DNA from: a virus
Lineage: Duplodnaviria > Caudoviricetes
IMG/VR virus record: IMGVR_UViG_3300031605_000003
Span: 1 to 54,190 of that record
DNA: 54,190 nt
Direction: 5' to 3' (one strand)
Shown here in pieces: positions 6,174 through 42,100 of this stretch. The notes under the pieces were generated by a model. It was not told where the DNA came from, made no database searches, and saw nothing but the letters and a program-made list of their open reading frames with translations. Made by a program: the position numbers and the translations under genes. How positions within the stretch are numbered: position 1 is the first letter of the stretch; each line of letters opens with the position of its first letter.

Positions 6174-6415
6174 TATATCGCTAAATCGTCTGTCTCTGCC
6201 GGTTGTCCGTACATCTTTTGTACAAATACGGCTTCGTCTTTTTGTTGTGAATCGTGTTCTTCTGAAGCTAATCTCATTGAATTAATATCAGAAAGTGTAA
6301 GTCTTGTTTTTCTTGTGTCGTCTTTATCTAATATGGAGATATCCTGATCAGGATCGTAAGTTTTATCTTGCTCAAACCCGTCTTCTCCGTATGTAAAAAA
6401 TTCGTTCAGTTTCAT
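6173..6415 (-). CDS. Head-module hypothetical protein
   Basis: 80 aa (MKLNEF...DTRKTRLTL...MYG); TTAAATA 5 nt upstream; follows the portal gene. Confidence 0.7.
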   Translation of the reverse strand: MKLNEFFTYGEDGFEQDKTYDPDQDISILDKDDTRKTRLTLSDINSMRLASEEHDSQQKDEAVFVQKMYGQPAETDDLAI

Positions 6416-6429
6416 ATTCGTATTTAACC

Positions 6430-8163
6430 TTAAATCTGTCCGCCGCCACCTGAGCCACCTGGTATAGTTCCACCACCTCCTGGTGTTGTTCCTGGTCCTC
6501 CTGGGTTTGGTGTTCCTGGTGCTGGTACTTCTGGGTCAGCTGTTGGCTCTTCAAATTGGTCTAGATCTGAAGTAATGCCCGATTGTGAAACTCCGCCACC
6601 TCTTAATTGTGACTGTTTACTTTGTTTACCTTTAGGTATAGCATTTTCTTCTGCCCAAAGATCGGCATTTCTTGCCATTTCTTCTTCACTTAATCCTAAA
6701 TATCTTTTTAACGCAAATCTTTTTGACATATATGGTAGTTCTGCTACCTGTGTAAATGTACCTACCCTACTTTGATCCATTTCAGTTTGTCTATAAGCCG
6801 CAAAGTTTTGTGGTGGGTTAAGTTTTAGTTCAAACATACCGTTGTCAATGTTGTAACCTTTACTTTTAATCCATAATTTAAATTCTGAATCAAATGTTTC
6901 CTTTAACATTGATTGTAATCTTGCACAATACTTGTTAAATCTTAATTCCTGTATGTAAGCAGTTCCAACTCTACCATCATTGTATTGTTGTCCACCATCT
7001 TCTGCGCCTGTTGGCAAATATGAACTTGGAATTCTTAATCCTCTAAACAATTTGTTTGTAAAAAATCTTAAATCGTCTATTTCACCTAAATTAGTACCAC
7101 CCGGTAGTGTATCAACTTTAGATCCTCTTCCTTCTGCTGTTTGCGGAAAGAAATAATCCTCATTAATGCTCATAGGGTTATATGTTGCATCAATATAGTT
7201 GACACCACCTGATGTGCTTGGAATTCTTCTTTGATTAATTTCGTTTTTAACTCTCTCAACGAATTGCATAGCCAAGTGTGTTGGCATATTACCTACGTCG
7301 ATATAAAATACCCTTCTTTCAGGTGCTCTTTGAACCCTGTAAATGATAATTGCATCTTCTAATAATTCTTTTTGTTTGTAAACTTTGAAAACTTGTTCTA
7401 ATACTGATTGTCCAAAAGGAAATAAGTTATCTAACCCATCTGACATTGACATATGGATAACGTTTTCTGCACCAATGGCATATTGATTCATTGTTCTATA
7501 AAATCTACCACCTGTTGCTCCAGCAAATCCTGACATATCAGATCCTCTACCAGCACCTGCATAACTTTGTGAGTACGCCGCAGTACCGCCACCTGTAGTT
7601 CCGCTACCACCAAATGTTTGATTTGGTGTTATTGACGTTACAGATAATTTTTGTAAGTTTGGATTAATATCTCTAATAACATATTGTTCAGGTTTTTTAC
7701 CCTCGGATTCGTTTACAATAATTCTATCTATTTTTGAAGCATCCATGTACAACCATTTTAATGTTTCTGGATCTCTTACAAAGAAACAATCTCCATATTT
7801 TAAAGCGTTTCTAAAAATTCTAAAAATTCTTTTTGAGAATTGGTTGGCGCTGGTCCACTGTTGTAATGCTTTCTTTAAAAGTTTTACTTCATGTTCAGTT
7901 GTTTCATCTTTAAAAACTAAATCAAAAGGTGTTTCATTTTCTGTATTAGATTGTGTAGAAAATTCTGCAAGAATATCTAGTGCCGCATTAATTTCTGAAT
8001 CTGAATCCATTTGATCATATTGAAAATATCTTTGAATTCTGTTAGGGTGTCCTGTATATACATCAGGTAGATATGATGAATAGTTTCTTTTTGCAAAGTT
8101 TGGTACTTTTTCACCAGATATTGGCGATAAGTTTGCGTCTCTAAAATATTTTTTCCAAGCCAT
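6430..8163 (-). CDS. gp20: Portal vertex protein (gp20-like)
   Basis: LLEDAIIIYRVQRAPERRVFYIDVGNMP, EDYFFP, TLPGGTNLGEIDD, LRIPSSYL hallmarks. Confidence 0.97.
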   Translation of the reverse strand: MAWKKYFRDANLSPISGEKVPNFAKRNYSSYLPDVYTGHPNRIQRYFQYDQMDSDSEINAALDILAEFSTQSNTENETPFDLVFKDETTEHEVKLLKKALQQWTSANQFSKRIFRIFRNALKYGDCFFVRDPETLKWLYMDASKIDRIIVNESEGKKPEQYVIRDINPNLQKLSVTSITPNQTFGGSGTTGGGTAAYSQSYAGAGRGSDMSGFAGATGGRFYRTMNQYAIGAENVIHMSMSDGLDNLFPFGQSVLEQVFKVYKQKELLEDAIIIYRVQRAPERRVFYIDVGNMPTHLAMQFVERVKNEINQRRIPSTSGGVNYIDATYNPMSINEDYFFPQTAEGRGSKVDTLPGGTNLGEIDDLRFFTNKLFRGLRIPSSYLPTGAEDGGQQYNDGRVGTAYIQELRFNKYCARLQSMLKETFDSEFKLWIKSKGYNIDNGMFELKLNPPQNFAAYRQTEMDQSRVGTFTQVAELPYMSKRFALKRYLGLSEEEMARNADLWAEENAIPKGKQSKQSQLRGGGVSQSGITSDLDQFEEPTADPEVPAPGTPNPGGPGTTPGGGGTIPGGSGGGGQI

Positions 8164-11538: not shown

Positions 11539-11880
11539 ATGTCTGATAAGGACCTAGTCCAAGAACTCAAGGCAACAATCTCCGATCTCGCAAAAGATAA
11601 GGATGATATGGCCAACACAATCAAAACGAAAGAGTCACGGATTAAGCAAACACTGATTAAATTAGAACACGCCACCGGCGACGTTAAAACGTGTGGACAC
11701 AAAATTGCCGACCAAGATAAAAAAATTAAAGACCTAGAAGAAAAACTTAAAGATAAAAATAAAATTGTTAAGAAAGAAATTGACGAGGAAATAGAAAAGT
11801 ATATAACGACAAACGGCACACTAGAAAATGACGATAGCACAACACACACACATCAGAAGAAGACTCGAAATAATCCTTAA
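11539..11880 (+). CDS. Coiled-coil hypothetical protein
   Basis: 113 aa with a K/E/D-rich heptad pattern. Confidence 0.65.
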   Translation: MSDKDLVQELKATISDLAKDKDDMANTIKTKESRIKQTLIKLEHATGDVKTCGHKIADQDKKIKDLEEKLKDKNKIVKKEIDEEIEKYITTNGTLENDDSTTHTHQKKTRNNP

Positions 11881-11893
11881 TACATATCATTAC

Positions 11894-11916
11894 AAAAAGA
11901 CGACTTACAGTCATCT
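11894..11916 (-). terminator. Intrinsic terminator closing the candidate ncRNA
   Basis: Minus strand AGATGAC-TGTAA-GTCGTCT-TTTT. Confidence 0.6.
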
Positions 11917-12299
11917 AAACTTCGCTTTCGCTCGTTTCTTTTAAAACTTACGTTACGCTCTAAAAAACTAAACGCACTATGCGTCCTATGTGCTAGACGT
12001 TAGTCATAGTTCTGCTATTTCTAGCAGAACGACTTACCCATGTGCTGAGCTTATAGTCACTGTATATTGCTGTCGTAACTGGGCGGTTGTGCGGTACCCA
12101 TTCGCTAGTTCTATTCAACGCGAGTTTACTAATTCTTTATACAGTAATTTTTAGTAAACCTGAGGATTATCTTTTTCTAAGAGCCTCATCTTTGCTGTCT
12201 GTTCTACAAGCAAGATCCGATCACGTTAAGTGACCTCAATGCTGTTGTAATATATAATGTAGATATGATTTGCCTGGTGGTTGGATGCTGTTCCCCAAC
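11894..12299 (-). ncRNA. Candidate large structured non-coding RNA (~400 nt) of unknown family
   Basis: No ORF of 60 aa or more, more GC-rich than flanks, about ten consecutive stem-loops, promoter upstream and terminator at the end. Confidence 0.6.
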
Positions 12300-12304
12300 G
12301 TTTA

Positions 12305-12333
12305 TATATAACATACAAAAAATAAACAGTCAA
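12305..12333 (-). promoter_or_regulatory. Sigma70-like promoter for the candidate ncRNA
   Basis: TTGACT (12328-12333), 17 nt spacer ending TGT, TATATA (12305-12310); points into the ORF-free region. Confidence 0.55.
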
Positions 12334-12358
12334 TCAAATTGAGTTTAAATATCACAAT

Positions 12359-13042
12359 ATGAAGATTTTATGTGCAGGCGATGGTTTTGGTAAAGGACAC
12401 ATATGGAAAATGTGGCCGCAAATACTAGAAAATATATGTGAAGTAGACAATGTATGTCAGGTTGGTGCAGGAAATGAATATATTATGAATGCAACAATAG
12501 ACGCTTGTACAAAGAATGATTATGATTTTGTTATTGTACAATGGGCTCAATCAAATAGATTAGATATTATTAATCAAAATCAAGGTGGATTAGTACAGAA
12601 AATATTAGATGATAAAGTGCATAGAACTAAATTTATGAATATTAGTTTGTCAAAAAGATTATGGTGGTTATCGAGCAGTAGTAGAATTAATTTTATAAAA
12701 GAGTATCATAACAATTATATTACACAAGATCAGCATTGTTTACGTACTATACATCAAATAAAGTATGTTGAGCTTTTTTTGAAAAGCAAAAATATAAAAT
12801 TTATGTTCATTAGTACACCAAATTTGGATTTTATGCATCTAGACGAACATAAAATTTTAGATTTTGAAGTCTGGGCATTCCATGAAAAGTATAAAGGAAT
12901 GGACGACTATGCTAGAAAATATCCTGAATATAAAGCAGACAAAGAACCAGCAAATTATAAACAACCCCAAACAAAAATACATAAACAGTTTGTAAAAGAT
13001 GTAATTTGTCCAAAAATTCCAAAAGATGATGAAGAAAATTAA
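12359..13042 (+). CDS. Hypothetical protein, SGNH/GDSL-like N-terminus
   Basis: ILCAGDGF..W...GAGNEYI...VIVQW...R pattern; the usual GDS serine is replaced (GDG). Confidence 0.5.
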   Translation: MKILCAGDGFGKGHIWKMWPQILENICEVDNVCQVGAGNEYIMNATIDACTKNDYDFVIVQWAQSNRLDIINQNQGGLVQKILDDKVHRTKFMNISLSKRLWWLSSSSRINFIKEYHNNYITQDQHCLRTIHQIKYVELFLKSKNIKFMFISTPNLDFMHLDEHKILDFEVWAFHEKYKGMDDYARKYPEYKADKEPANYKQPQTKIHKQFVKDVICPKIPKDDEEN

Positions 13043-13973
13043 AGTATATTACACGCCGGGGGCCTTTGGAAATTTCTTAGGCTACTTAATAGATTGTTAT
13101 AATAATAAAAAATTATTGCCGTCACCGTTATTACCAGCCGGAAGTTCACATGGTAGATATAGGTATGAACACAAAACACTTGTATATCCTATAAATTTAG
13201 ATCCAGAATATAAAGTTTTTTTAGAAGATAAAGAAGAAGGAATTGGGTTAACATGGAAATCACAATATTTTTTTTATATATTACACGCAGTATACAGTAG
13301 AACGAATAGTGGACAATATGGAGAGTGTGGAGTACGAGCCATGGAAAAAAACTTTTGGAAGTTTTATACAATGCACGACGCACCGTTAGAAAACCAATTA
13401 AAATATTGGAAATTATTATTAGTAAATTTGAAAGAATTTTATAATTTTGATTGTAATGAACAAAATCAAGTTGTACCAAAATTAATATTAAGGCAACTTT
13501 TCTTTTTTTATATGGTACAAAGTCAAACTAATATGGTTACAATTAGAAACAACGAAATATTAAAAAGAAGAGAGTTGCAATTAGTTGATATTGATGTTAT
13601 TTTTGATTATGAGCAATTAAAGAATTTGTTAGGGATAATGTTTGGTTATGATTTAGATTTTAGTAAGTTACATAAAAAATTTATAGAAGATAATATGTCT
13701 TTAAAAGCATTTAATTTAAAAAATTATATTGTTGATTGTGTTTTTAAAAAGATAAATGAACCAATTCCTGATATAGACGTTGTTACTGAAGCAGGTATAT
13801 TATTTGAATTAGAAAAACATTTTTATGATATTCCTTTTCATAATATCCCGGAATTTTTTAAAGATACAGGATCTATAATAACTTACATTAATAGTTTTCC
13901 AAACTTTATGAAACAACCTAATAAGTTATTTCAACAAGATTATAAAAGGTTTAAACCAGATGTGGATTTATAA
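13026..13973 (+). CDS. Hypothetical protein
   Basis: 315 aa AT-rich ORF overlapping both neighbours; N-terminal YTPGAFGNFL loop. Confidence 0.65.
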   Translation: MMKKIKVYYTPGAFGNFLGYLIDCYNNKKLLPSPLLPAGSSHGRYRYEHKTLVYPINLDPEYKVFLEDKEEGIGLTWKSQYFFYILHAVYSRTNSGQYGECGVRAMEKNFWKFYTMHDAPLENQLKYWKLLLVNLKEFYNFDCNEQNQVVPKLILRQLFFFYMVQSQTNMVTIRNNEILKRRELQLVDIDVIFDYEQLKNLLGIMFGYDLDFSKLHKKFIEDNMSLKAFNLKNYIVDCVFKKINEPIPDIDVVTEAGILFELEKHFYDIPFHNIPEFFKDTGSIITYINSFPNFMKQPNKLFQQDYKRFKPDVDL

Positions 13974-14403
13974 CAATAAACAAATAACTGAATTACCTGA
14001 AGATTGTGTAGGTTTTGTTTACCAAATAACAAATACAACTAATGGTAGGATGTACATAGGCAAAAAATTAGCACAGTTTAAAAGATCCCGTCCACCATTA
14101 AAAGGTAGAGTAAACAAACGTAGATACAAAGTTAATAGTGATTGGGAAGATTATTATGGTAGTAGTGATAACTTAACTATTGATATTAAAAGACTTGGTA
14201 AAGATAATTTTAAAAGAGAAATACTTTTTTACTGTAAATCAAAAGCAGAACTATCGTATATAGAAGCCAGAGAACAGTTTGCACGTAAAGTGCTAGAATC
14301 AAATGATTATTATAATGGTCATATTCGTGTAAGAATACACGGATCTGGAATACTCAGAGAAAAATCTACAAAAGGTATATTAAAAGAAAAAGCCTCCACT
14401 TAA
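13960..14403 (+). CDS. GIY-YIG family endonuclease
   Basis: GFVYQITNTTNGRMYIGKK, YYGSS, FKREIL, E...YYN motifs. Confidence 0.85.
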   Translation: MWIYNNKQITELPEDCVGFVYQITNTTNGRMYIGKKLAQFKRSRPPLKGRVNKRRYKVNSDWEDYYGSSDNLTIDIKRLGKDNFKREILFYCKSKAELSYIEAREQFARKVLESNDYYNGHIRVRIHGSGILREKSTKGILKEKAST

Positions 14404-14416
14404 AAAGTGAAGGCTT
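14389..14416 (-). terminator. Terminator hairpin between convergent genes
   Basis: AAGCCT(C)CACTT-AA-AAGTG(A)AGGCTT with a T-rich tail on the minus strand. Confidence 0.65.
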
Positions 14417-14442
14417 ATCCTAATTGGTCCAATTAGCAATTA

Positions 14443-14655
14443 TTACGCCGCAGTAGCAGTACTTGTTTTTGCAGTACTCGCCGCGTTTTTAGCCTCTTGA
14501 ATTTCTTTTCTTCTTAGTTTGATCAGTTTTGACAAAGACGCTAATGCTTTTCTGGCTCTTGTTGCCGAAGCCTTAACACCCTTCTCTGTGAACTTTCCGT
14601 TCTCTTCAGAGTAGTTTTGAATCTCTGTCATGATCGATTCATGCGTTTGTGACAT
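14443..14655 (-). CDS. Histone H1-like Hc1 family DNA-binding protein
   Basis: KFTEKGVKASATRARKAL..L.KL.K.RRKEIQE matches the Hc1 pattern; AAGGA SD. Confidence 0.75.
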   Translation of the reverse strand: MSQTHESIMTEIQNYSEENGKFTEKGVKASATRARKALASLSKLIKLRRKEIQEAKNAASTAKTSTATAA

Positions 14656-14701
14656 ATGTTTTTTTTTCCTTCCGTTGTCGTACGATATAATTAATTAACA
14701 T

Positions 14702-15262
14702 ATGTTTAATTTAAACACACTCGAAGTGGTTCTGTCAATAGAAAAATCTCCAATATTACGGAAAAATGGAATAATTTACCAAGAATATCATAATTTTTTT
14801 GGTAATAACATATTAAAAGAGTTAGAAACTTTGGTAAATTTGAATTTTGTACAGTTGGAAAAGCAATTGGACAGACCAAGACTTCGGGTTGACTATTCAG
14901 AAGAAGTAATGAAAAAAATAAAACTTTTCTTTATGCAAACTCCTATTACTAAGGCTTTAGAAAAAAAATTTAATACTAATTTAAGTTTTGATAGTGTTGA
15001 CATTTGGCAAGATGAACCAGGATATTATTTAGAACCTCACACAGATGATTCAAGAGTTAAACTTGCATTACAATTTTATTTAGGAAACGATAACAACGTA
15101 GGAACATCTTTATTTGACAAAGACGATAATGTTTTGAAAACATTTGAATATACATTTAATTCAGGTTATGCTTTATTGAATAACGAATTTAGTCGGCATG
15201 GAACAACAACTAAAGTTACAAATGGGATAAGAAAGAGTATGTATGTTAGATACAGTCAGTAA
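14702..15262 (+). CDS. 2OG-Fe(II) oxygenase
   Basis: HxD (PHTDD), distal His (RHG) and RxS (RKS) cosubstrate motif. Confidence 0.8.
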   Translation: MFNLNTLEVVLSIEKSPILRKNGIIYQEYHNFFGNNILKELETLVNLNFVQLEKQLDRPRLRVDYSEEVMKKIKLFFMQTPITKALEKKFNTNLSFDSVDIWQDEPGYYLEPHTDDSRVKLALQFYLGNDNNVGTSLFDKDDNVLKTFEYTFNSGYALLNNEFSRHGTTTKVTNGIRKSMYVRYSQ

Positions 15263-16076
15263 AAACGATTTAGATAAAACATTATTTCCAATAAATGATC
15301 CTTATCTACAAAAACTAAAAGACGATTGGTATACAAAGTCGCAAAAACCTATAGAACACGATGCGTTTATTAACAAGGCGTCGGAATGGTTTAGAAGCAC
15401 TAAAATAAATTCATTGTCAGGGGTTGATAAATTTCCTTGTGTCGATATTATAATGGGTTGTACACATTATATAGAAAGTTTAGTTTCTAAACATAGTTGG
15501 AACATACAAATTTTACCCAAAGATTATGCTTATTATAGAGTAATGGGAAAACAAACAACAAACCCAGGAGATTTAAAATCTAATATACCTTTAATTGTAT
15601 CATTGCCAAATTGGTATTACGGTGATCGTCCAGATTGGGAATCTGTTTTAAAAGAATGTGAAGAAAAAAATATAGATATTCATGTAGATTGTGCTTGGAT
15701 AACAGTTGCAAACGATTTTAATTTTAATTTTGATCATCCAAATATTAAATCATTTGCAATGAGTATGTCAAAATATGATATGACATGGAATAGAATTGGA
15801 TTACGTTGGTCAAGGCAACGAACAATGGATTCGTGTACGGTAATAAGTGCTCAAAGAAAATATAATGAACTTACAACTGCTTGTGGATCGTTTATAATGG
15901 ATAATATTGAAAGAGATTATGGATGGAACAAGTATGGAGAGTTGAATAAAAAAATATGCGAACAATTAGACGTATCACAAACAAAATTTGTATATGTGGT
16001 CAAAGATAAAAACAATGATTGTTATTCAATAGGAAAAATTTTAGGTGATATTAAACAAGTATCTCCACGTCATTAG
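15243..16076 (+). CDS. PLP-dependent (fold type I) enzyme-like protein
   Basis: IHVDCAW, SMSK (putative Schiff-base Lys) and RIGLR motifs of aminotransferase class I/II. Confidence 0.65.
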   Translation: MLDTVSKNDLDKTLFPINDPYLQKLKDDWYTKSQKPIEHDAFINKASEWFRSTKINSLSGVDKFPCVDIIMGCTHYIESLVSKHSWNIQILPKDYAYYRVMGKQTTNPGDLKSNIPLIVSLPNWYYGDRPDWESVLKECEEKNIDIHVDCAWITVANDFNFNFDHPNIKSFAMSMSKYDMTWNRIGLRWSRQRTMDSCTVISAQRKYNELTTACGSFIMDNIERDYGWNKYGELNKKICEQLDVSQTKFVYVVKDKNNDCYSIGKILGDIKQVSPRH

Positions 16077-29600: not shown

Positions 29601-30103
29601 ATCATCCTGTAAAATATAAAATATTATTTGGTACAAATGCAGACGAAGAATTACAAGCAACATTTAAAGTTGTAAAAAACCCAGGAACCAATGTAACAAA
29701 TGCAGTTGTCCAGACAAGAACGATTGCGGCAATTAACGAATTTTTTGCATTGAATAATTGGGATTTTGGCGATACTTTTTATTTTACAGAATTAGCCGCT
29801 TACATACACAACAAACTAGCACCAGACTTACTAACAGTAGTAATAGTTCCAAATCAAGCTGGACAAGTTTTTGGTTCGTTATTTCAAGTTGCGTGTGCGG
29901 CAGACGAAATTTTTATCAGTGGGGCCACCGTTGATGATGTTACGATTATAAGTGCTTTAGGAGCCAATCAATTATTGGCATCGGGCACAGTAGTGACGTC
30001 AACTTCCACAAAAACTACAACAACATCATCTTCAGCAGTATCTGGCACCACTACAACATCTGGATCAGGATCATCCACAGGCAGTAGTGGAGCAGGATAC
30101 TAA
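26624..30103 (+). CDS. gp6: Baseplate wedge subunit gp6-like
   Basis: YDFETLR, ENFLETA.RR.SV..LA..INY, LVFGDG, QNRMITAEDY. Confidence 0.9.
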   Translation: MATTERQNRLLVSEDWRKIYQSFQQADFKSYDFETLRRTMVAYLRENYPDDFNDFVESSEYVALIDLIAYIAQALSFRVDLNARENFLETASRRNSVLTLARLINYNAKRNQPATGLLKFDTISTTQDVKDSSGTNLANSTVVWNDSANSNYREQFTAILNAANVSGQLFGKPREASAIGGITTQVYTLSSTQLDLPIYGFRKTIGGINRKFEVVSSSISGSESIYESDPIEGSGFTYTYRTDGSGDSSNNTGFFFLFKQGLMQKSDFTINQSTTNHIESLSTANINNNDIWLYKLDQFGQLSQRWKQVPSLAGNNAIYNSLSKSERNIYNVVTKNNDTVDLVFGDGNFSTIPLGSFRTYFRTSDNAKYAIQPSEMQNILIAVPYMDLNGGNQTLTIGVSLKASVYNATATESNASIREKAPQVYYTQNRMITAEDYQVMPLSASQEIIKVRSVNRSASGISRAKEILDPTGAYSNVSVFADDGILYREEKTNTFTFTFTNKNTILNTINSSLEAKLKNAYSRQFYYLKYNTKDLSSLVATWVSTTTGTNTNTGYFKGVGPLVTGEFATSNLKYAKKGALVKFTSPDTREFLNNSLVTAGSDNAEDRVWAKIGAVAGDGANSGIGNLESGVGPVTINNIIPNGSVISALFPSFSTSFSNTIKNELIEKIDAYETLGIRYDFENEIWKVITSTNVSPSSVFSLSNAGSTAGTNLDASWWFKLTNDGNTYTVTYRSLDYVFESAGQNKFHYDAQEKIYDYKTGKSVKDTVRLLKTNAVVSTGNSVGYSINWQVVDTVTEADGFQDNRKVKVGFYDDDDDGVVDNPEIYDIIVEPDTAPTSKFVFFQQYISYDNIKRFKPYAATNFIVAEKEADITLSSIYSEGQLFYFYDLAEDVIKKYNSTTNTITTTTDYYARRGRASLSFQYKHNAGQETRIDPAVSNIIDVYMLERTYDNLYRIWLQDGGSKPILSTSDQLRISYAGTLNPLKSLSDQIIYHPVKYKILFGTNADEELQATFKVVKNPGTNVTNAVVQTRTIAAINEFFALNNWDFGDTFYFTELAAYIHNKLAPDLLTVVIVPNQAGQVFGSLFQVACAADEIFISGATVDDVTIISALGANQLLASGTVVTSTSTKTTTTSSSAVSGTTTTSGSGSSTGSSGAGY

Positions 30104-33100
30104 TGGCAGATACTCCAATTAATTCACGTTCAGATCAAGAAGTAGTCGTTCAAAACGGTGTAGAGTTAAGAAGAACTATTGCTCATCTTCCTGCATTTTA
30201 TAGAACAGACGCTAATACAAGATTTTTATCTAGTACACTCGATCCACTTATTCAAAAAGGTGCATTAGAAAGATTAGATGGATATATTGGTAAACAAGAT
30301 GCTTACACAAGAAAACTAACTGATACATATGTTTCTGCTACTAATAGAGATAGGATGTCATATCAATTAGAGCCAACAGTAACGTACACAGACAAAGATA
30401 CAACATCAATTAATCCAGAAGACCAAGTACAATTTACTGGAACGTATGATGACTACATAAATCAAATAAAATATTTTGGCGGTAACATAGAGAACCATGA
30501 CAGATTAAACAAAGAAAATGTATATGCGTGGAACCCAGCAATTGACTTAGATAAGTTAGTTAATTACAGAGAATACTTTTGGATGCCAGAAGGTCCAAAT
30601 GCTATAACAATAGATTCAGTAGGACCATCCGCGGCAATAGAAATTGATGTAACAGCATGGCCAAATGATGGTAGCACAACAAAAGCATGGAAGTTTGGAA
30701 CAAAAGCATCAGAAACAAACCCTCAAATAAAATTATATAAAGGCAACACTTATAAATTTAAAGTAGACGCTTTAGGGCATCCATTCCACTTAATGACAGA
30801 ACCATATAAAGATGGATCTTCAAATCTTTTTTATACAACAGGAGTAACAAATGCAGGAACAGACAAAGGCACAGTTACTTTTACAGTACCAACAGATGCA
30901 CCAAATGTACTTTATTATCAGTGTGGCAATCATGATAGTATGTATGGAATCTTTACTCTTGATACAGTAAGCTCAACAACAAAAATTAATGTTGCTGACA
31001 ATATTTTAGGGACAAGAAATTATGCATTAAGAACATTAAATTTATCAAATGGAATGAAAATTAAATTTGAAGCAAATGTTACAGATAGCACATATGCAGG
31101 CAACGAATATTATGTTGAAGGAGTAGGAGATTCTATTACATTAACAAACATAGAAAGTTTAATGACACCGGAATCATATGCTACTGAAACAACTATTTTA
31201 TATGGCAGTACTGCTTACGATTCTAGACCATATGCAAAAGCATTTTATCGTCCGGAAACAAAAGATTACATTACAATTAAAAGAGATTCAAGGGATCAAA
31301 ATGCTTGGTCAAGATATAATAGATGGTTTCACAAATCTGTAATTAATGCAACAGCTAAAGCAAACGGATTTACACCAACGTTAATAGAATCAGATAGAGC
31401 TAAAAGACCAATTATAGAATTTGATTCGGGATTAGCATTGTACGATCACGGAACAGTTGCTAAAACATCTGTAACATTATTTGATACAACAACAACTGAT
31501 GCATTTTCAACAGTAGTAAAACAAACAGGTTACATTGTAGATGGAATAACAATAGCAAACGGAATGCGAGTAGTATTTTCTGCAGACACTGATACGCTTG
31601 TAAAAAATAAAATTTATGTAGTTAACTTTGTACAAGCAGGAGATTCAACGTCGGTAATCAATCTTACTGAAGCCACTGATTCTGTACCTGCAGATAATGA
31701 ATCTATTTTTATAGAATTTGGAACAAAAAATCAAGGTAAAACTTATTACTATAATAAAGCAACAACTACATGGAATTCAGGACAAACAAAAATTAAAATA
31801 AACCAAACACCGTTGTTTGGAATGTGGGATAACGATCATATCTCATTTGACGATGCAACAGCATATCCAAATTCTTCATTTAAAGGTGCAAAAGTTTTTG
31901 AATATAAAATATCTAACACAGCAACAACAGATACAGTTTTAGGATTAAAAGTAAAATACAACACAATTAATAATGTAGGAGATCTTGTTTTTGATTCGGA
32001 TCATACAGCAGGATCATTTACATATAGAATAGGTAACGCTACAAACACAAAAAAACTTTCCGAAGGTCATTTGCATTATACTACGAGCTTAACAACACAT
32101 AATTCAAAAGGTGCTTGGGTTAAAAGACTTGTTGAGAGTAAACAACGAGTAATTAGAACAGTTGTAGTAGATGATTCAGAAAAACAATTATTTCCAATAG
32201 ATTTTTATAAAGACTCTGTTTCTCTTACAGATTTAGAAGTCTCTGTAAGTGTTAATGGTATAAGAAAAAATTTAACAACAGATTATACTTTAGTTGATGG
32301 AACAGTAAACAAATATGTTAAATTTGTAAAAGAGTTAACGGTAGGCGATCAACTCAAGCTAGAAGGATATTCAAAAGTAAAAAAAATTGTAGGAAAAGGG
32401 ATTTATGAAGTTCCAGAAAATTTATCAGTCAATCCATTAAACGTACACCTAGGTACATTTACATACGGACAAGTACTAGGACACGTAAAAAATATTTTTA
32501 GCAAGAATACAAATCTTACAGGAAGTATGCCAGGAGAATCATCACTCAGGGATAATCCAGATGCCGATTTAATAGGCGGGTTAATACTTCAACACGAAGG
32601 AACATTATTACCTGCTGTGTTTGGGTTAATAGATCAAGAATCAAATGTATTAATGGCAATAGATTATTGTAATCATGAATATGAAAAATTTTATAATGCA
32701 TTTTTAACACACGGAACCGGTACAGCATATGAAGGCCTTGTTGCAGACAGAGTAGATGAGATAATAACAAAAATTAATCAAGGAAAAACTGTAACGTCCC
32801 CATTCTTTTATGAAGACATGATAGGAGTTGGAGAAAATTATTCTTTAAGAACATACACAGTACCTGATCCATCTGAAACAGAATACGCAATTGATTCATT
32901 ACATATAATGACAACAACAAATAATAGAGCAGTGTACGTTTATAAAAATGATGTACAGTTAATATTAGGTACAGATTATACAGTTAGCACAACAGACGAT
33001 AGTGTTAACATACTATCTACACTTGTTACAGGTGATATTATTAAAATTAGAGATTACAGCGATACAACCGGAAGTTACGTTCCTCCAACACCATCTAAAT

Positions 33101-36100
33101 TAGGATTGTATCCAGCATTTAAACCAGAGTCATTTACTGATGACACATATGTTACAAACATTACAGCAATTAGAAGACACGACGGTTCTATTATTAAAGC
33201 ATACGGAGATGAGAGAGATGAGTTAATAATTGAACTTGAAAAAAGAATTTACAATAATATCAAAACATCTTATGATTCTACTTTATTAGATATAGGTGAT
33301 GTTATTCCATCAGGATTTACAGCAACAGAATATACTTTAGATGAAACAAATAAAATTTTAGGGCCAGACTTTTATGTATGGGCCGGTAGAAATGGTGTGC
33401 AATATATTAATAATACAACGTTTAAAGACGGCTCACCATTTACATACAATTACTCAGCATCAACAGATCGAATAAGCAGTGCTAGTTTACCAGGACATTG
33501 GAGAGGCATATACAATTATTTTTATGATACAGACAGTCCACATATAAGACCATGGGAGATGTTAGGACATTCAGTAAAACCAAGTACTTGGGAAAGTACA
33601 TACGGAACAGCACCATACACTTCAGGTAATACAGTATTATGGGAGGCTGTGGCAGTACAACCAGGTAGATACGGCAAACCAAATATTACATCATATATTC
33701 CTGTTGACGCTTCGGGAAATTTATTAGATCCATTAGCGGCCAGACTTGTAGAAAATTTTGACATACCGGGTAGAAATAGAGCATGGAAGTTTGGTGACCA
33801 AGGACCAGCAGAAACAGCCTGGAGAAAATCATCGTCATATCCGTTTACTGTTATAAAAATGTTAGCAGTTACAAAACCAGCAAAATTCTTTAATTTATTT
33901 TTTGATAACAGTAGATTAACTAAAAATGCTTCAAACAACCTTATTAGTACAGACACACTTATAAGACAAAATTTAAGCACAGCAAAATATCATTTAGAAA
34001 CTTCAACAGATTCACAAACTGGAGTTGTAACAAGATATACAACAGCAGGATATCAACCATTTGTAGTAAATTATTTGTCATCAAAAACACTTGATCCTAA
34101 TGTATTCTTTTATACTAAAATGAAAGGATTAAATGTACAGTTAGCATACAAACTTGGCGGGTTTACTGATAAAAATAATTTAAAAGTTTTAACAGATTCG
34201 GTATCACCAGGGTCAGCATCAGGTTCTAAATTTATTCCAGATGAAAATTATAAAATTTTATTTAGAACATCAAATCCTGTAAACAGTTTACACTATTCGG
34301 GTGTTTTAATTGAGAAGAATACCGATTTATCAGTTGATGGATCTACATTAACTGGTGGATATAAAGTATTAGGGTATTCAACTACTAAACCGTTTTTTAA
34401 TTTTTATTGGCCTGTAAAAAATATAACAAGTGAAAAAATTTCTGTAGCAGGTGCAGAAGCATTAACTTATTCAAATTATGACAAAGCAGTACAAACTATA
34501 CCATATGGTCATGTCTTTGATACACGCCAAGAAGTTGTAGATTTTTTAATGGGATACGGAAAATGGCTAGGAACACAAGGATTTATTTTTGATAAGTTTT
34601 CAAATGAATTAAAAGAAGTATTAACTTGGAAAACATCAGTTAGTGAGTTTTTATTTTGGACAACGCAAGAATGGACAGCAGGCTCGGCAATTACAGTATC
34701 GCCAGGAGCAGAAGGATTTCAGTTAGATACAGAAAATTCAATTGTAGGAAAATTAAAAAATTTAGCAGGTGATTATTCTTTATTAGATGCAGGTGGAAGA
34801 AAAATTAATATTAAGGACATTAGTACTAAAAGATTAGGAAAAACATTTGATATTACTATTAACGATCCTGCAACAGGACTTTATAATGTAGCATTAAACA
34901 CAGTCCAAAAAGAACACATTTTATTATTTGATAACAAGACAGTGTTTTCGGATATTATATATGAGCCATATACAGGATATCGTCAAGCAAGATTAAAATT
35001 AGTTGGATGGAAAACAAGTAACTGGAATGGTGATTATTATGCTCCAGGATTTATGTTTGATACTGCACAGGTTACATATTGGGTAAAAAATACGGATTAT
35101 AAAATAGGTGACACAATAGAGTATCAAGGAAAATTTTATGTTTCAAAAGTAAATCATAATTCTTCTACAACGTTTATAAACGAAAGTTGGATGCAAAAAG
35201 ATGAAAAACCAGCACCACAATTAATACCAAACTTTGATTATAAAATTTCACGTTTTAATGATTTTTATAGTTTAGAATCAAATAATTTTGATGAATCACA
35301 GCAAAGCCTAGCACAGCATTTAATTGGTTATCAATCTAGAGATTATTTAGAAAATCTTTTTGTTAATGATATTTCACAATATAAATTTTATCAAGGATAT
35401 ATTCAAGAAAAAGGTACTCAAAATGCTATTGATAAATTATTAAAAGCAAAATACGAAGAACAAGATATTTCTTTAGATTTATATCCAGAATGGATGATTC
35501 GTACAGCTGACTTTGGAAACACAGATTCAAAAGAAAGCATTCAAATTACATTAGACGATGATACCTATACAGCAAATTCACAAAGTATTGAATTGTATGA
35601 TACTTCTAATGAATCACAACAATATGCTAGATCAGTTTATGTTGATAAAAATATTTTATATACTAAACCTGTAGAATATACAGCAAGTACAACGTTTTCA
35701 AGATACAATTATACTACAACAGGCATAGACAGAGATTTTGTGCAAGTTTACAAGACAGCAGGATATCCACAACTAACGCAAGTTCAACATACTGCATATG
35801 ATATAACAGACCTTTTAAATTTAGATGTTAATTCTGTAACAGCAAACGATTTAATATGGGTTGCAAATAAATCTAATTTAGATTGGGACGTATTCCGTTT
35901 AACAACTGTAGACTATAAAATTGCATATATGAAAGCAATTAATAGTAAAACGCAGTTAGAAATTACATTTACTAATTCTCATGGATTAACAGCCGGAAGT
36001 ACAACATCATTACCTGATTATTTTGCAATAGCAAGTTCTCAATCAACTGAATTAAATTCGGTTTATCTTGTACAATCTGTACCAAGCCATAAAACAGTAG

Positions 36101-39100
36101 TCATAGATTACACAGGCTCAACAGCATTCATGCCAACATTAGAAGATGGCTCAACAGCAGATTCGTTTGGCAATGTTTATAAATTTACATCTGTAAGAAT
36201 ATCATCAATGAATAATGTTAATGATATGTTATCTTACAGCGATTATAATGATTTAAATGATAGTATATTAAAAGAAGGCGACAAAGTTTTTGCAGATGCA
36301 GATGCATCTGGGTTATGGAGAGTTTATGAAAAACAAGATCCAAATACACAAATTAAAATGTTGTCACCATCAATGGTAGCAGATCAAGGATTTGGTTACA
36401 GCGTAGTTGCAAGGAACGACGGAAGAACAGTTGTAGTTGCGGCACCATCAACTGGACAAGGTACAATACACTTTTTATTTAGAAGAGAAAGTACAGCAGG
36501 AACATCATTTTTAACTACGGCATCACTTACTACAACTGCTGGTAATGATAATACTGGTAAGTTGGGTTATTCATTATCAATGAGTACAGATGAAAACTTT
36601 GTTGTAGCAGGCGGACCTTATACAAATTCACTTGGATCTGATGGTAGTACAAGATTTAACAATGCTGGTTTAATTAAAATGTTTGTGTGGGATATAACAA
36701 CTTTCAAATACGGAACATTAAGTACAATAACACCACCAACTGATGAAGCAAACCAACATTTTGGCTGGGCACATAAAATTTGCGAACCAACTGTTAGTTC
36801 TCTTAGAGCTACTCCGATAAAATATATGTTTGTATCAGCACCAGGACTTACAACTGATACAGGTAGAGTTTATATGTATGAATGGGGCGTTGGAGCAGAC
36901 GGCTCCACGTATGATACTTGGACACAATGTCTGACAATAGATTCAGCTGTCGCAGGAACAGGCAAAAAATTTGGACAAGCATTAGCTTCTAACGATAATG
37001 GTGATATTCTTGCAGTTAGATCTAAAGCACCAGGACAAGCAGGAATGGTAGAAATATTTGTAAGAACAACACAATCAAGTGATGATAGTACACAACACGC
37101 ATTTACTCTTGCACAAACGTTAACTGGTATATCTAATGACGGTTCTAGTTTGAACAGAGAGTTTGGTCAATCGTTAACGATGAATAAAGACGGAACAATT
37201 TTAATAATTGGTGCACCAGGAGCCGACAAAACAGAACAAGCAGATGCTGGAAAAATATATTATTACAAATGGAATGTAGATGGATCTACAAATACGTATA
37301 CTTTACAGCAAACAATAGAAGCACCTGATACTCAAGTTAATATGAGATTTGGAAGTTCTCTAGATATAAATGATTCAGGAACAAGAATAGTTATAGGTGC
37401 AGAAAAATTTTCAAATAGTAGAGAACATAAATTTGACGCAGGAGAAACAACATTTGATTTACAAGATACTAGATTTGTAGATGAAAATATTGGTTCAGGT
37501 GGTGCTTATACTGCCACTATGTATAATACAGAATTTGTAATTGACGATAGATTAATAACAACAAGTGTATCACCAGGCGACGATTTTGGTAGAGGTATTT
37601 GTATAATAGATCAATCAGTATTAGTTGGAGCTCCGGAAGATGACGGCAATTTGTCAAGCGACGGAAGTTCAATAGTTAGTAACGACGGAACAGTAACTTG
37701 TTTTGATTTAACAACTGATAACACATATGCATGGAAACAAATTGCTTACGAAACTGCATTAATCGATGATAACAAATTAGGACAAGTTTTTGATTTTAAT
37801 AAAGATAGTAAACAAATTTTAAATTACTTTGATTTGTACGATCCAATTAAAGGAAGAATATTAGGAATAGCAGACAGAGAAATTAATATTAAAACTGTTT
37901 ATGATCCAGCGTCATATAATTATGGTGAAAATATAAGAGGAGAGATTGCATGGGCAGAAGACCACATAGGAAAAATATGGTGGGATTTATCTACAGTCAA
38001 ATGGTTATGGTATGAGCAAGGAGATCAAGAATTTAAAATTAATAATTGGGGGAAAGTTTTCCCTGGATCATCTATTGATATCTATGAATGGGTTGAATCA
38101 ACAATGTTACCTAGTGAATGGAATGCCATGTCAACTAGTATTAACGTAGGCACGTCAGCAAATACAACAGGAAGTCCACAACATATAGACGATACACGTT
38201 ATACTGTTAAACAAAAATATAGTTCAGCATTAGACGGTTTTGTAAATTATTATTATTACTGGGTAAAAAATAAACAAACAATGCCAACCAATTCGGTAGT
38301 TATAAGAAAAAATACTGCGGCATTTATAGCAACTATAATTTTAAATCCTCAACATTCTGATATTAGACATTATTCAGTTACTGATAATAACAAACTGTTA
38401 GTATTTGGTGCAAAACAAGATCTTTCTAATGATGAAGTTGTTTTAAACATTGATATAAGAACAAATACATTTGAAGGTGAAGCACATTCCGTTTGGAAGT
38501 TAGCAAGAGAAGGAGATAAAGATTTCCGTCCAGGAACACAAATTGAAACACGTTGGTGGGATTCTTTAATTGGCACAAACAACGCAGGAGATATTGTTCC
38601 AGATTTAAATTTACCTATTAATGTAAAATATGGAAATAGAGTTAGACCAAGACAATCATGGTATGTTAATAGATTTGATGCATTAAAAGAAATAATAGAT
38701 TATGCTAATTCAGTTTTAAAAGGTAATCAACTTACAGGAATTATAAATTTAGATAATTTAAATGCCGCAGAAACAGAACCTACTGCACAAAGTTTAGAGT
38801 GGGATGAAAAAGTTGACACATATGCTGAGCTAACATATATTAATACTAACGATATATCAGGAACAGCAAATTATCTTGTACAAGCAGACGAAACAGTTAA
38901 TGGCTTTTGGGCAATATATAAATGGAACGGAACAAACTGGGCTAGAACAAAAGTACAAACGTATAACACAGCAAATTATTGGTCATACATTAATTGGTAT
39001 AAAGACGGATATAATGAAAATACACAAATAGACAAACAAGTAACATATCAATATGAATTAGATACTTTAGAGTTAGGAGTAGGAAAAATTGTAAAAGTTA

Positions 39101-42100
39101 CATCAGCTGATACAGGCGGATGGAAATTGTATTGCAAAAAAATTACCGAATGGGATAATATCGGAACTGAAAACGGTACAATTAGATTATCAACAAAACT
39201 TTATGATTATTCGCAAGATGCAACTGGATTTGCAGATGCTGATAATTTTGATGATAACTTCTTTGATCAAGAACCTGCAATAGAAACTCGTAAAATATTA
39301 ACAGCATTAAGAGACAATTTATTTGTAAACAATCTTGCAGTAGAATACAATACATTATTTTTTATTGGATTAAGAAGAGTGTTATCGGAACAAACTTATG
39401 TAGACTGGGTGTTTAAAACATCTTTTATTAATGCAAAAAATTCTGTAAGAACATTAGATCAAAGAAAAACATATACAGCAGGTACAGACAGTTGGATTGA
39501 AAGTTATATTAACGAAGTTAAACCTTTCCATACAAAATTACGAGAATATAAATTAGGATACACAGCATCTGAAATCGAAGACGTAGTATCTACAGACTTT
39601 GATAATCCACCTTTCTATGATACAACAACAGGTGCAATTAGAAATTTAAACATATCTGGTGATACCGGAAAGCAAACAGAATATCCTCATAAATTTTGGA
39701 GTGAATATTATAAAAAACACGTAGCAACAATTACAATATTTAAAGCAGGATCAGGGTATACAAAAATTCCAACAGTTACAATATTAGGCGGAACAATAGG
39801 CAGTACAGGTCCATTCCAAATATATGATACAGCATCAGCAGGAGTAAGTTCAGGGTCATTAGGATATTACTATCCACTGTACACATCAAAAGCACTAGCA
39901 AATATTGCCGATACACAAAACAGTGGATCAGGTACATCTAGAGAATTTACGTTTAATAGTCTTTCTGGAAAGTTTTATCAACCAACTTCAAATACAACAT
40001 ACGCACAAACGTTACAGTCCGGAACGTATAAAATGTATACAACACCAACTACAACAGCGGCAACAGCCACAGCAATTATTAAAAATGGGTCAGTGTCAGC
40101 AATTACAGTAACCGGTATAGGTGCAAATTATACAACAACTCCAACAGTAATGATTACAGGTGGAAAAGATGATGGCACAAATCCTACAGATCAGGCTAAA
40201 GCATATGCAAATTTAAACAACGACCTTGTAAGAGACTTTAGTACAACAGTTAAATTTGATAGAATATCAGCTACAAGTTCTGTTGTTGATTGGTTGGCAT
40301 TATCTAGTTACGCTTATGGAGATTTAATTAGATATAAAAATCAATTATACAAAGCAACAAGTGCCTTTATTGCAACATCAGATTTTGATGATAACTTAGA
40401 TGATGTATATAAAGTGTATGGAGACGAAACAGGATTATCAGCCGCAGACAGAACAAAAGGTTTCTATACGCCAACTTCTGGAATGGCGGGGAACGAACTA
40501 TCACAAGTTATGTCGGGTGTTGATTATGGTGGAACGATGGTTACAGGATTATTATTCTCACAAGGGCAAGGATGGGATAAAGCAGGTTGGTATGATTATG
40601 CCTGGGACTCTCATGGAGCAACAAAAATTAAAAAGTTTTATGGAGACGGTATTACAGTTGCATTTACATTTACATCAGCACCAGCTACTACTGAAGTTTT
40701 CCAGGTCTATATTAATAGTGTAAAACAAACAGACGTAGTTAAAGGCGACGGGTCAACAAAAACATTTACATTAAGTTCAGCACCAGCAGACGGAGTTTTA
40801 GTTGAGTTTATACCATTTGATGATGACGGTGTATTAACACCAACTGATGATAGAACATTAGATTCAATTGTTAAAGGCGGATTATTTAATTCAGCTTTAG
40901 GAACAGCGCCATCAGATATACTAATGGAAGGAGATGATTTTATTTCTCCTGAAACAAGTTATGCTCCAGAAGAAGCAGTTCCAGGACAAATGTTTGATAC
41001 AGTAGATATAAAAGTTTATACATCACCAGAATCAGGTGCACCATTTATTACAACAAAAAATTACCTAGTTGATAGTTCAACAACAACGTTCTCAACAGGA
41101 GAACATCCAGGAACATTAGCATCTGTTACAGTATCAGTGGACGGAGTAACTAAAAAAATTACAACAGATTATACAATTAATGTACAAAATAAAACAATTA
41201 CATTTAACATAGCACCAGCAACTAATAGTAACGTATCAATTAGAACGTTTGCAATATCAGGAGAAAATTATAGAGTTTTAGATACGTACACAGGAGATGG
41301 TAGTACAGTTGCATACATAACATCAACAAGAGAAAATTTTAATTTAGATTCTAGTAATTCACAAATTTATATTACAATTAATGGTATACCAGAGACAGCA
41401 TACACAACATCGTCATTAGGAAAATTATTAACTGTTACATTTAATTCTGCTCCGGCGGCAAATGCTTATGTTCAAGTTGCAGGATTTAATCAAACATCGG
41501 CAACAAGAGCGTATGCTCAAATTATGTCAAATACAATTACATATGATGGATCAACAGACAGATATACTTTAACATATCCACCAGGAGCAATTGGTCCTTA
41601 TTCAGGATTAACTATGATTGAACTTAATGGAAAAATGTTAAGAGGACCCGACAACACATATTATTTAGGTGATGGAAGTACATACAATTATGGTGTAGTA
41701 ACAGGCTTGGGCGACGACTCAACAGTAGATCCATCAAAAACTATTTCATCAGCAACTGATGTACAAGTATTTGTAAACGGAGTACAAAAAATATTAAACA
41801 CTGATTACACAGTTGATATTGGAGCACAAACAGTTTCAATGGTAACAGCACCAACAGTAACAGATGTAATTGCAATATCAACATTAGTTGATAATCATTA
41901 TTATAATGAAGGCAATGATATAATTTTAATTCCAAGTAGAATAACAAGTCCTTATAGTTTATCTGCAAGTGATATTATAACAGTAACAACATTTAATAAT
42001 GCACTTGGTACAAAATTAAGAAGAGAAGTGCTAGAAGGCAAATCAAACGGAATATTTAAATTAAGATTTGATCCGTTAAATTCAGATTACACAACAGTCT

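Follow-up and report, generated by a model that had tools for sequence, protein, structure and literature searches.

A candidate new family of large structured RNA with twin variable hexamers in uncultured marine T4-type jumbo phages

The minus strand of a virus fragment of 54,190 nucleotides (nt) (Duplodnaviria; Caudoviricetes; IMG/VR record IMGVR_UViG_3300031605_000003, positions 1 to 54,190), which in its whole length is called the window in the following, almost certainly carries at positions 11894-12299 a real gene for a structured RNA of a new family. The carriers are marine jumbo phages of the T4 type, as yet uncultured, with PA5oct, Phosso and Vibrio phage 2.275.O among their relatives. 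A preliminary description of the sequence had proposed an undescribed large structured phage RNA on this strand, and the comparison with relatives bears this out: the family comprises at least 140 viral contigs in IMG/VR, covariation is strong, a promoter is kept upstream of 54 of 78 aligned members and there is no match in Rfam. Both pseudoknots of the fold and a pair of identical hexamers had been overlooked in that description. As the best explanation overall we regard a gene, present in a single copy, whose product is a stand-alone RNA of about 405 nt that belongs to a new family and acts in trans, a reading to which we give somewhat better than an even chance.

Among 24 viral loci encoding relatives of the neighbouring 227-amino-acid (aa) gene, an alignment-based search detected a DNA homologue of the gene-free gap at one; a single-protein search with the 227-aa neighbour among viral contigs returned no relatives. 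The family was then collected by exact DNA probes, i.e., stretches identical between the window and this first homologue. The exact 19-mer GGGTACCGCACAACCGCCC of the P6 hairpin (12081-12099) is present in 20 viral contigs, its A/G/T variant in at least 120 further ones and a 21-mer from the GAAA-capped hairpin in 12. When 99 distinct full-length sequences, window included, were compared with a profile of the first 17, 84 matched, 78 of them with more than 150 bits over almost all 480 positions, and the remaining 15 represent more distant clades with the same order of elements. Homologues align along the full length of the RNA, which measures 382-455 nt (median 425) in the family. A core covariance model (model R1) built on a 142-nt core recovered all 22 viral loci of other clades submitted to it, and each of five larger records (73-197 kb) contains one copy. 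The window shows all elements of our working definition, namely P4 with PK1, PK2, the P6 19-mer GGGUACNGCACAACCGCCC, a GNRA-capped P9, the twin hexamers and the position between gp46 and the baseplate hub gene.

A scan of a prokaryote genome collection with the 19-mer gave 16 contigs, with about 17 matches expected by chance (18 fixed bases, 596 Gb; our own estimate). According to the core model five of these are true members and ten share the 19-mer only; a match in a Hymenobacter isolate was discarded as a spurious extension. The five members (118-164 bits, full-length) are located on short or medium marine contigs of metagenome-assembled genomes labelled as Neomarinimicrobiota, Rickettsiales (a 54-kb contig), Pacearchaeota, Pseudobdellovibrionaceae and Betaproteobacteria, and most likely represent phage DNA that was mis-binned with cellular genomes of unrelated phyla. 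A blastn search with three members and a 141-nt core against 50,697 cultured-phage records gave no match even at E values up to 10. On whole records, the core model reached at best an E value of 0.44 in PA5oct and 3.6 in Atu_ph07, neither of which is convincing, and had no match in Phosso or Vibrio phage 2.275.O.

The fold was analyzed in alignment A2 (78 members, MAFFT), in which helices were derived from column statistics and set by hand. The window pairs of the 5' domain, P8 and P12 were also hand-set, and MAFFT misaligns the lineage of the window in the 5' domain. The resulting structure comprises 91 pairs in 18 helix segments (Table 1), and 92.2% of the 6545 cells are standard pairs, a value that falls to 33-39% if the 3' partners are slid by 1-3 columns. 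The collected relatives covary, as 51 of the 91 pairs change on both sides (663 cells), and none of 500 shuffles reaches any of five measures. Out of the eight helices proposed in the preliminary description seven are conserved and covary in the family: GUUGG/CCAAC, the GGUCAC/GUGAUC region, UGAGG/CCUCA with its inner helix, GUUUACUAA/UUAGUAAAC, UGGG/CCCA, the GAAA-capped GUUCUGCUA and the 3' hairpin. The eighth, AUCUUGCU/AGCAAAGAU, which also appears in a single-sequence fold, had to be given up: it is paired in 35.1% of cells, and by homology the stretch belongs to P1 and P2.

Compensatory changes are found in a number of helices. In P3 both partners change at three pairs; at columns 172/199 (P3/P3b) the pair is AU in 40 and GC in 29 members. 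The pseudoknot PK1 is kept in clade B by compensatory change (CUACAUAU/AUAUGUAG versus CUACAUCU/AGAUGUAG). PK2 takes the form GUUG(N)/ACAAC in 148 of 151 distinct sequences, and the three variants GUCAG/CUGAC, GUUUG/CAAAC and GUAGG/CCUAC all retain five pairs. The loop of P9 stays GNRA-like (GAAA, GCAA, GUAA or GAGA), and P12 covaries between GAAAC/GUUUC and GCUU/AAGC. Other pairings were rejected, i.e., a stem around the hexamer R2 (66% paired) and a pairing of GACU at R2 with AGUU (74% paired), both with no compensatory change, as well as the poor structure returned by RNAalifold on a first rough alignment. A possible long-range UGCA/UGCG helix is paired in 96.7% of cells; it overlaps P1, and its sole double change comes from one lineage. 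As a separate feature, the motif AGGCA(A/C)A occurs two to four times in the 5' part of the RNA (about 12250-12299 in the window, columns 15-80 of A2); its copy number varies by member, and no pairing partner was found for it.

Table 1. Position of the promoter, the RNA and its structural elements in the window, in order along the RNA strand.
Feature	Position	Strand	Remarks
-35-like hexamer TTGACT	12328..12333	-	read in the sequence
Extended -10, TGnTATATA	12305..12313	-	TATATA 12310-12305, TG 12313-12312; 17-nt spacer to the -35
Predicted RNA, about 405 nt	11894..12299	-	5' end deduced from the -10, 3' end from the U tract
P0 hairpin GUUGG/CCAAC	12280..12299	-	3 of 5 pairs change on both sides, 69% paired; many rows without P0
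5' domain	12203..12263	-	P1, P2 and apical helix
P1	UCUAC 12263-12259 / GUAGA 12207-12203	-	96% paired; 3 pairs change on both sides
P2	AGCA 12243-12240 / UGCU 12212-12209	-	94.7% paired; 3 pairs change on both sides
Apical helix of 5' domain	GGUCAC 12235-12230 / GUGAUC 12224-12219	-	
P3 UGAGG/CCUCA with inner P3b CUU-AGAAA-AAG	12161..12188	-	98.9% and 87.1% paired
P4, 10-11 bp, GGUUUACUAA/UUAGUAAACU	12123..12160	-	9 of 11 pairs change on both sides; 96.2% paired
PK1 5' strand ACUGUAUA, loop of P4	12138..12145	-	partner 12059-12066; 6 of 8 pairs change on both sides, 98.3% paired
PK2 5' strand GUUG in invariant CGCGUUG	12116..12119	-	pairs with CAAC 12086-12089 in the P6 loop
P5, encloses P6 and P7	12069..12105	-	GC 12105-12104 / GC 12070-12069; 100% paired
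P6 hairpin UGGGU/GCCCA, near-invariant loop ACCGCACAACC	12080..12100	-	closing pair CG 54, UA 20
P7 GU-UACG-AC	12079-12072	-	100% paired; caps GAAA, UACG, GACA or GCAA
PK1 3' strand UAUACAGU	12059..12066	-	strand just before P8
P8 hairpin, presents R1	12031..12058	-	GACU 12058-12055 / AGUC 12034-12031; inner CUCA 12049-12046 / UGGG 12040-12037
Hexamer R1 AGCACA	12046-12041	-	loop of P8
P9 hairpin GUUCUGCUA-GAAA-UAGCAGAAC	12009..12030	-	99.2% paired; 3 pairs change on both sides
Hexamer R2 AGCACA	11989..11994	-	after P9; 52 nt from R1 in the window
P10 hairpin ACGCA-UAG-UGCGU	11972..11984	-	88.8% paired; opens a variable region missing from some members; also terminator-like
P12 AAAC/GUUU around conserved loop GAGCGAAAGCGAA	11917..11937	-	3 pairs change on both sides
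P13 hairpin AGAUGAC-UGUAA-GUCGUCU with U tract 11897-11894	11894..11916	-	6 of 7 pairs change on both sides

Several lines of evidence point to the minus strand as the folded one. The fold of this strand outperforms those of shuffled sequences (z -2.68, equalled by 1 of 100), which is not true of the plus strand (z -0.97, equalled by 18 of 100). Furthermore, G-U pairs, which had already been taken as a sign of the minus strand, prevail at many pairs of the family and form the majority at five of them (54, 52, 55, 75 and 56 of 75 cells). Read on the opposite strand, these cells would turn into A-C mismatches, which identifies the minus strand of the window as the folded one. The G+C content of the RNA is 0.397 versus 0.305 in the flanks of the window, with family medians of 0.446 versus 0.413.

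The minus-strand promoter TTGACT-17-TATATA of the preliminary description is present at its place upstream of the RNA and is retained in the family: TTGAC, 16-18 nt and TAnnn[TA] form the motif of the 54 promoter-bearing members, the strict form with TTGACN and TGn is found in 25 of 78, and the -10 region TGTTATATA is kept in the family alignments. A promoter consensus scan did not list the window promoter because the final letter of its -10 hexamer is A. On the same strand, terminator-like hairpins are located at 11916-11898 and 11986-11970 (the scan found three in total versus 0.6 expected). Close to the promoter another signal may be present. The plus strand reads TTGAGTTTAAATA at 12339-12351, with 7 nt between it and the ATG that starts the 227-aa gene, and this site is kept in most clade A members as TATTTAAA(C/G)(C/T)CAA on the RNA strand, immediately upstream of the -35. 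We take a box of the TATTTAAA type to resemble the T4 late-promoter box TATAAATA, so that the RNA promoter and a late promoter appear to stand back to back.

Concerning novelty, a comparison of the whole window with Rfam 15 (4227 models) yielded only the freshwater-2 motif at 866-949 above its gathering threshold. With E values up to 10 the RNA region matched only STnc320 (16 bits, E 4), a clade B member matched two snoRNA models (E 0.16 and 3.9) and eight member loci (78 kb) gave no match, and in none of these three comparisons was a family recovered for the RNA. ARAGORN detected no tRNA or tmRNA gene in the window and no tRNA gene in 18 stretches (356 kb; three records), in line with the preliminary description, in which the element was not recognised as a tRNA or tmRNA. 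A description of the RNA family was not found in the literature, with subscription journals and supplements outside the coverage. On these grounds we consider the family to represent a new class, although a family that is missing from Rfam and from the searched literature may still have been published.

GOLLD and ROOL are large ornate RNAs that are often carried by phages, frequently beside tRNA genes, which is not the case for the present family. The likeness, partly after PMC12286853, lies in a size of hundreds of nt, many helices with pseudoknots, a phage-borne gene, the lack of a known function and the discovery by comparison. The family described here is shorter, belongs to another phage lineage, has no Rfam match at E values up to 10 and bears twin identical variable loops. 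A further point of comparison is ncRNA002 of PA5oct, which is 451 nt long, abundant early in infection and of unknown function according to PMC7318152. It resembles our RNA in size and is preceded by a sigma-70-like promoter, and the jumbo phage that encodes it is a relative (67.9% identity in the major capsid protein). However, the core model has no match at this locus, and the sole PA5oct match mentioned above lies elsewhere in the genome. ncRNA002 is located in the terminal repeat of the genome and shares with the family just a short AGGCAA-like 5' stretch, and neither the core model nor a motif comparison detected homology between the two.

The most distinctive feature of the family is the hexamer that is displayed twice. 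R1 and R2 are identical in 78 of 78 members, at a spacing of 52-60 nt, and both segments open with (G/A)UGACU. Seven hexamer types were counted, i.e., ACCACA (40), GCCACA (15), AGCACA (11), AGUACA (4), ACAUGA (4), ACGUGA (3) and ACUACA (1), and three further sequences carry GGUACA, ACAUCA and AGUACA, two of which are new types. Of 21 sequences from distant clades, 17 have an exact repeat of at least 7 nt at the corresponding position. All nine types known from clade A and its variants end in A, as does that of clade D. On a likelihood tree built without the hexamer columns at least ten changes of hexamer type are required and, as R1 equals R2 throughout, both sites have changed together many times. 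R1 and R2 are not complementary to each other, no complement exists elsewhere in the RNA, and no third alignment column covaries with the hexamers.

Because the displayed hexamers change in concert, both seem to contact the same kind of external partner. In the mechanism we propose, host RNA polymerase would transcribe the RNA from its own sigma-70-type, extended -10 promoter. Early promoters of T4-type phages are sigma-70-like, and therefore the RNA is probably made early. The folded RNA would then act in trans and display the same lineage-specific hexamer in the loop of P8 and again downstream after P9, so that it could engage two copies of one external partner. This partner might be a nucleic acid with 6-7 complementary bases or a dimeric protein, and it would differ between phage lineages or hosts. 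The RNA would thus be a bivalent scaffold or decoy and not a cis regulator, primer or messenger RNA (mRNA). We consider the chances of bivalent recognition in trans, which is read from the sequences, to be about even. Type III antitoxin RNAs (ToxI) and the pseudo-ToxI mimics of phages have a comparable layout in that identical short motifs bound an RNA unit of tens of nt, and an RNA of this kind could serve a phage as a decoy. Unlike these, the RNA of the window has two motif copies in a conserved 400-nt fold, no tandem units and no toxin gene nearby.

A number of observations weigh against a stand-alone RNA with two recognition sites. Bivalent recognition is derived from a single pattern, and no partner of the hexamers was found in cis or in the phage DNA searched: about 780 kb of flanks show no enrichment of the complement of the respective hexamer, a 10-mer complement in a 196-kb record lies solely inside the RNA gene, and a search of the window for hexamer complements gave nothing notable. 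P8, which presents R1, is 69-85% paired, a value lowered by the alignment, and P8 and the pairing proposed around R2 are weakly supported. The covariation controls are inflated since the members are related and the structure was derived partly from the counted alignment, and therefore the counts per helix are the better evidence. The only RNA library among 24 runs is a marine oligo-dT library with one 264-base contig of a relative, in which the depth of the RNA region (2.1) is not higher than that of the flanking genes (2.7 and 4.3). At the 3' end, the proposed U-tailed hairpin is present in the window and the hairpin is conserved, but a U run after P13 occurs in 14 of 78 members only, so that the terminator of the window is not a rule of the family; the P13 hairpin itself is under selection. 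Finally, clade B has no evident sigma-70-like promoter, and its RNA comes immediately after a small same-strand gene, so that the RNA of this clade may be the processed 3' part of an operon.

A special form of the recognition in trans would be the capture of tRNA. The twin loops could be codon-like specifiers that form kissing contacts with the anticodon loops of two copies of the same host tRNA, e.g., His for CAC, Tyr for UAC and Met for AUG, which would make the RNA a trans-acting, T-box-like tRNA-capturing RNA that is made early. We regard this as unlikely. In its favour, the hexamers end in A, the type has changed at least ten times, no complement was found in cis or elsewhere in the phage DNA searched, and the phage contigs searched have no tRNA genes of their own. 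The specifier of a T-box has the form codon plus purine. Similarly, the hexamers of clades A and D hold a looped variable triplet followed by an invariant A (CAC-A, UAC-A, AUG-A, GUG-A, AUC-A). The RNA of the window differs from a T-box as it stands alone, with the next downstream gene on the other strand, lacks an antiterminator, a T-box sequence and an Rfam match, and has two identical specifier-like loops instead of one specifier. If the tRNA reading were true, the RNA could protect a tRNA against anticodon nucleases, keep it sequestered or act as a sensor of its state, and the triplet might be retuned upon a change of host or a different defence.

The genomic place of the RNA brings up other explanations. 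The gene is always located between the recombination genes gp46/gp47 and the baseplate hub gene of PA5oct/Phosso-like T4-type jumbo phages: gp55 sigma, gp47 (SbcD-like) and gp46 (SbcC-like) lie upstream on the RNA strand, and the hub (PF12322) beyond the RNA. In clade B the order on one strand is gp47, gp46, small gene and RNA, facing the hub gene. In the clade of the window (clade A) a few genes on the opposite strand separate gp46 from the RNA. In the window these form an island of low GC content (0.29 versus 0.35-0.37 around) with plus-strand genes at 12359-16076, which includes a gene for a SegE-type GIY-YIG homing endonuclease (13960-14403); no such insert is present in clade B contigs. 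In the Phosso record a gap of about 1 kb with no annotated genes (6411-7424), between the genes for a Holliday-junction resolvase and RNase HI, sits a few kb beyond gp46; the core model finds nothing there either.

This neighbourhood could fit a replication-origin transcript, i.e., a structured pre-primer like RNA II of ColE1 or the R-loop transcripts of T4 origins, which remains on the template and primes early DNA synthesis; a replication primer RNA had been the alternative in the preliminary description. Those transcripts are likewise promoter-driven non-coding RNAs of several hundred nt near replication or recombination genes, and our RNA is non-coding, has a sigma-70-type promoter, adjoins gp46/gp47 and lies at a switch of gene orientation; the direct repeats about 55 bp apart could also be protein-binding sites on the DNA. 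Relatives encode RNase H (PMC7318152; Phosso annotation). The cumulative GC skew has its minimum near 10-11 kb, but the skew tracks the coding strand throughout the window, hence the minimum is uninformative on an origin, and no AT-rich unwinding element or initiator gene was identified. Furthermore, about 90 selected base pairs, two pseudoknots and GNRA/UNCG caps over 400 nt exceed the needs of a primer, the fold is conserved along its full length and R1 is located in the loop of a covarying hairpin. We consider an origin transcript quite unlikely.

The RNA might also be a cis-acting or 3' untranslated region element that serves as the processed or stabilizing 3' terminus of the gp55-gp47-gp46 operon; alternatively, it could act as an antisense or termination buffer where genes converge. 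The arrangement in clade B, where the RNA follows a same-strand gene of 111-128 aa behind gp46 and no clear promoter is seen, would agree with this, and in the window the RNA is convergent with a 113-aa gene and ends in a terminator-like hairpin. On the other hand, clade A has opposite-strand genes between gp46 and the RNA and a conserved promoter of its own, the RNA does not overlap the neighbouring genes, and a stabilizer or terminator needs neither 400 nt nor two pseudoknots nor covarying twin loops, which makes such a role very unlikely.

It is highly improbable that the RNA is the remnant of a mobile element or ribozyme, such as an intron fragment, an RNA associated with a homing endonuclease or the guide RNA of a transposon-type nuclease. 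The endonuclease gene is only 1.6 kb away in the low-GC island and the twin short repeats recall the boundaries of a template or guide, but the RNA is single-copy at a fixed syntenic place and interrupts no gene, Rfam gave no intron, ribozyme or guide-RNA match and clade B lacks the endonuclease gene. No family match to a reverse transcriptase was found in five member records (513 kb), which speaks against a template with repeat boundaries.

The RNA lies in a gene-free gap (11881-12358) between two plus-strand genes, 11539-11880 and 12359-13042. It had been described as the largest gap without open reading frames, which is in agreement with our data: the longest frames within it are 54 and 48 aa on the plus and 41 and 36 aa on the minus strand, none reaching 60 aa, and the two other large gaps of the window carry co-oriented small frames of 61-78 aa. 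In the family no frame out of the six stays open across the region of the invariant 19-mer in every member (minimum run 8-20 codons), the period-3 signal is absent (0.65 times the mean power) and the gap runs modulo 3 are mostly not in threes (1126 and 533 versus 344). Thus, a small protein-coding gene on either strand or a single-stranded DNA structure has a next to negligible chance, even though opposite-strand stop-free runs have a median of 75 codons with frames of 62-98 aa at some loci and DNA hairpins also tolerate G-T pairs, as the conserved promoter is directed into the structured strand and the GNRA and UNCG caps are of RNA type.

Large intricate RNAs with no known function are rare, and RNase P, group I and II introns, tmRNA, GOLLD, ROOL and OLE have opened new biochemistry. 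The present family is abundant in marine viral data, where natural variation sufficed to define two pseudoknots, and the paired change of distant hexamers points to a specific recognition event. Moreover, the RNA marks an uncultured phage lineage, and its invariant 19-mer is a simple probe for these phages and, via the phages, for their hosts.

The carrier phage itself is known from a 54-kb fragment that CheckV estimates to be 15% complete. Together with 55% for a 196-kb record, this corresponds to a genome size of roughly 360 kb for the lineage. Besides the T4-type baseplate hub (PF12322) and a tape-measure-like protein, the genes encode a portal, a major head protein, a late sigma factor and SbcD-like/SbcC-like (gp47/gp46-type) nuclease subunits. 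The nearest cultured phages are the jumbo phages Phosso, Vibrio phage 2.275.O and PA5oct; the major capsid protein is 73.7% identical to that of Sinorhizobium phage Phosso, 68.6% to that of Vibrio phage 2.275.O and 67.9% to that of PA5oct, and gp46 shows 43-49% identity to the three. Two seawater metagenome runs from different studies contain contigs that are at least 99% alike to the window.

Regarding the direct neighbours, the left gene (11539-11880) encodes a lysine- and glutamate-rich protein of 113 aa with no family match, and the right gene (12359-13042) the 227-aa protein, which belongs to no Pfam or PHROG family. The latter has 25 relatives in metagenomes, among which a G-A-G-N-E and W-W-L-S-S pattern is invariant, and its gene adjoins the RNA gene solely among close kin of the window. 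Apart from this locus, the minus strand carries at 866-949 a full-length Rfam freshwater-2 motif (76.9 bits versus a gathering score of 49.9) that lies downstream of the major head gene region and, on its strand, immediately precedes a 141-aa gene (443-868), in a phage that occurs in seawater runs. Furthermore, in the structural region a plus-strand stretch at 30103-42897 consists of one open frame of 4264 aa, which is preceded by a frame of 1159 aa.

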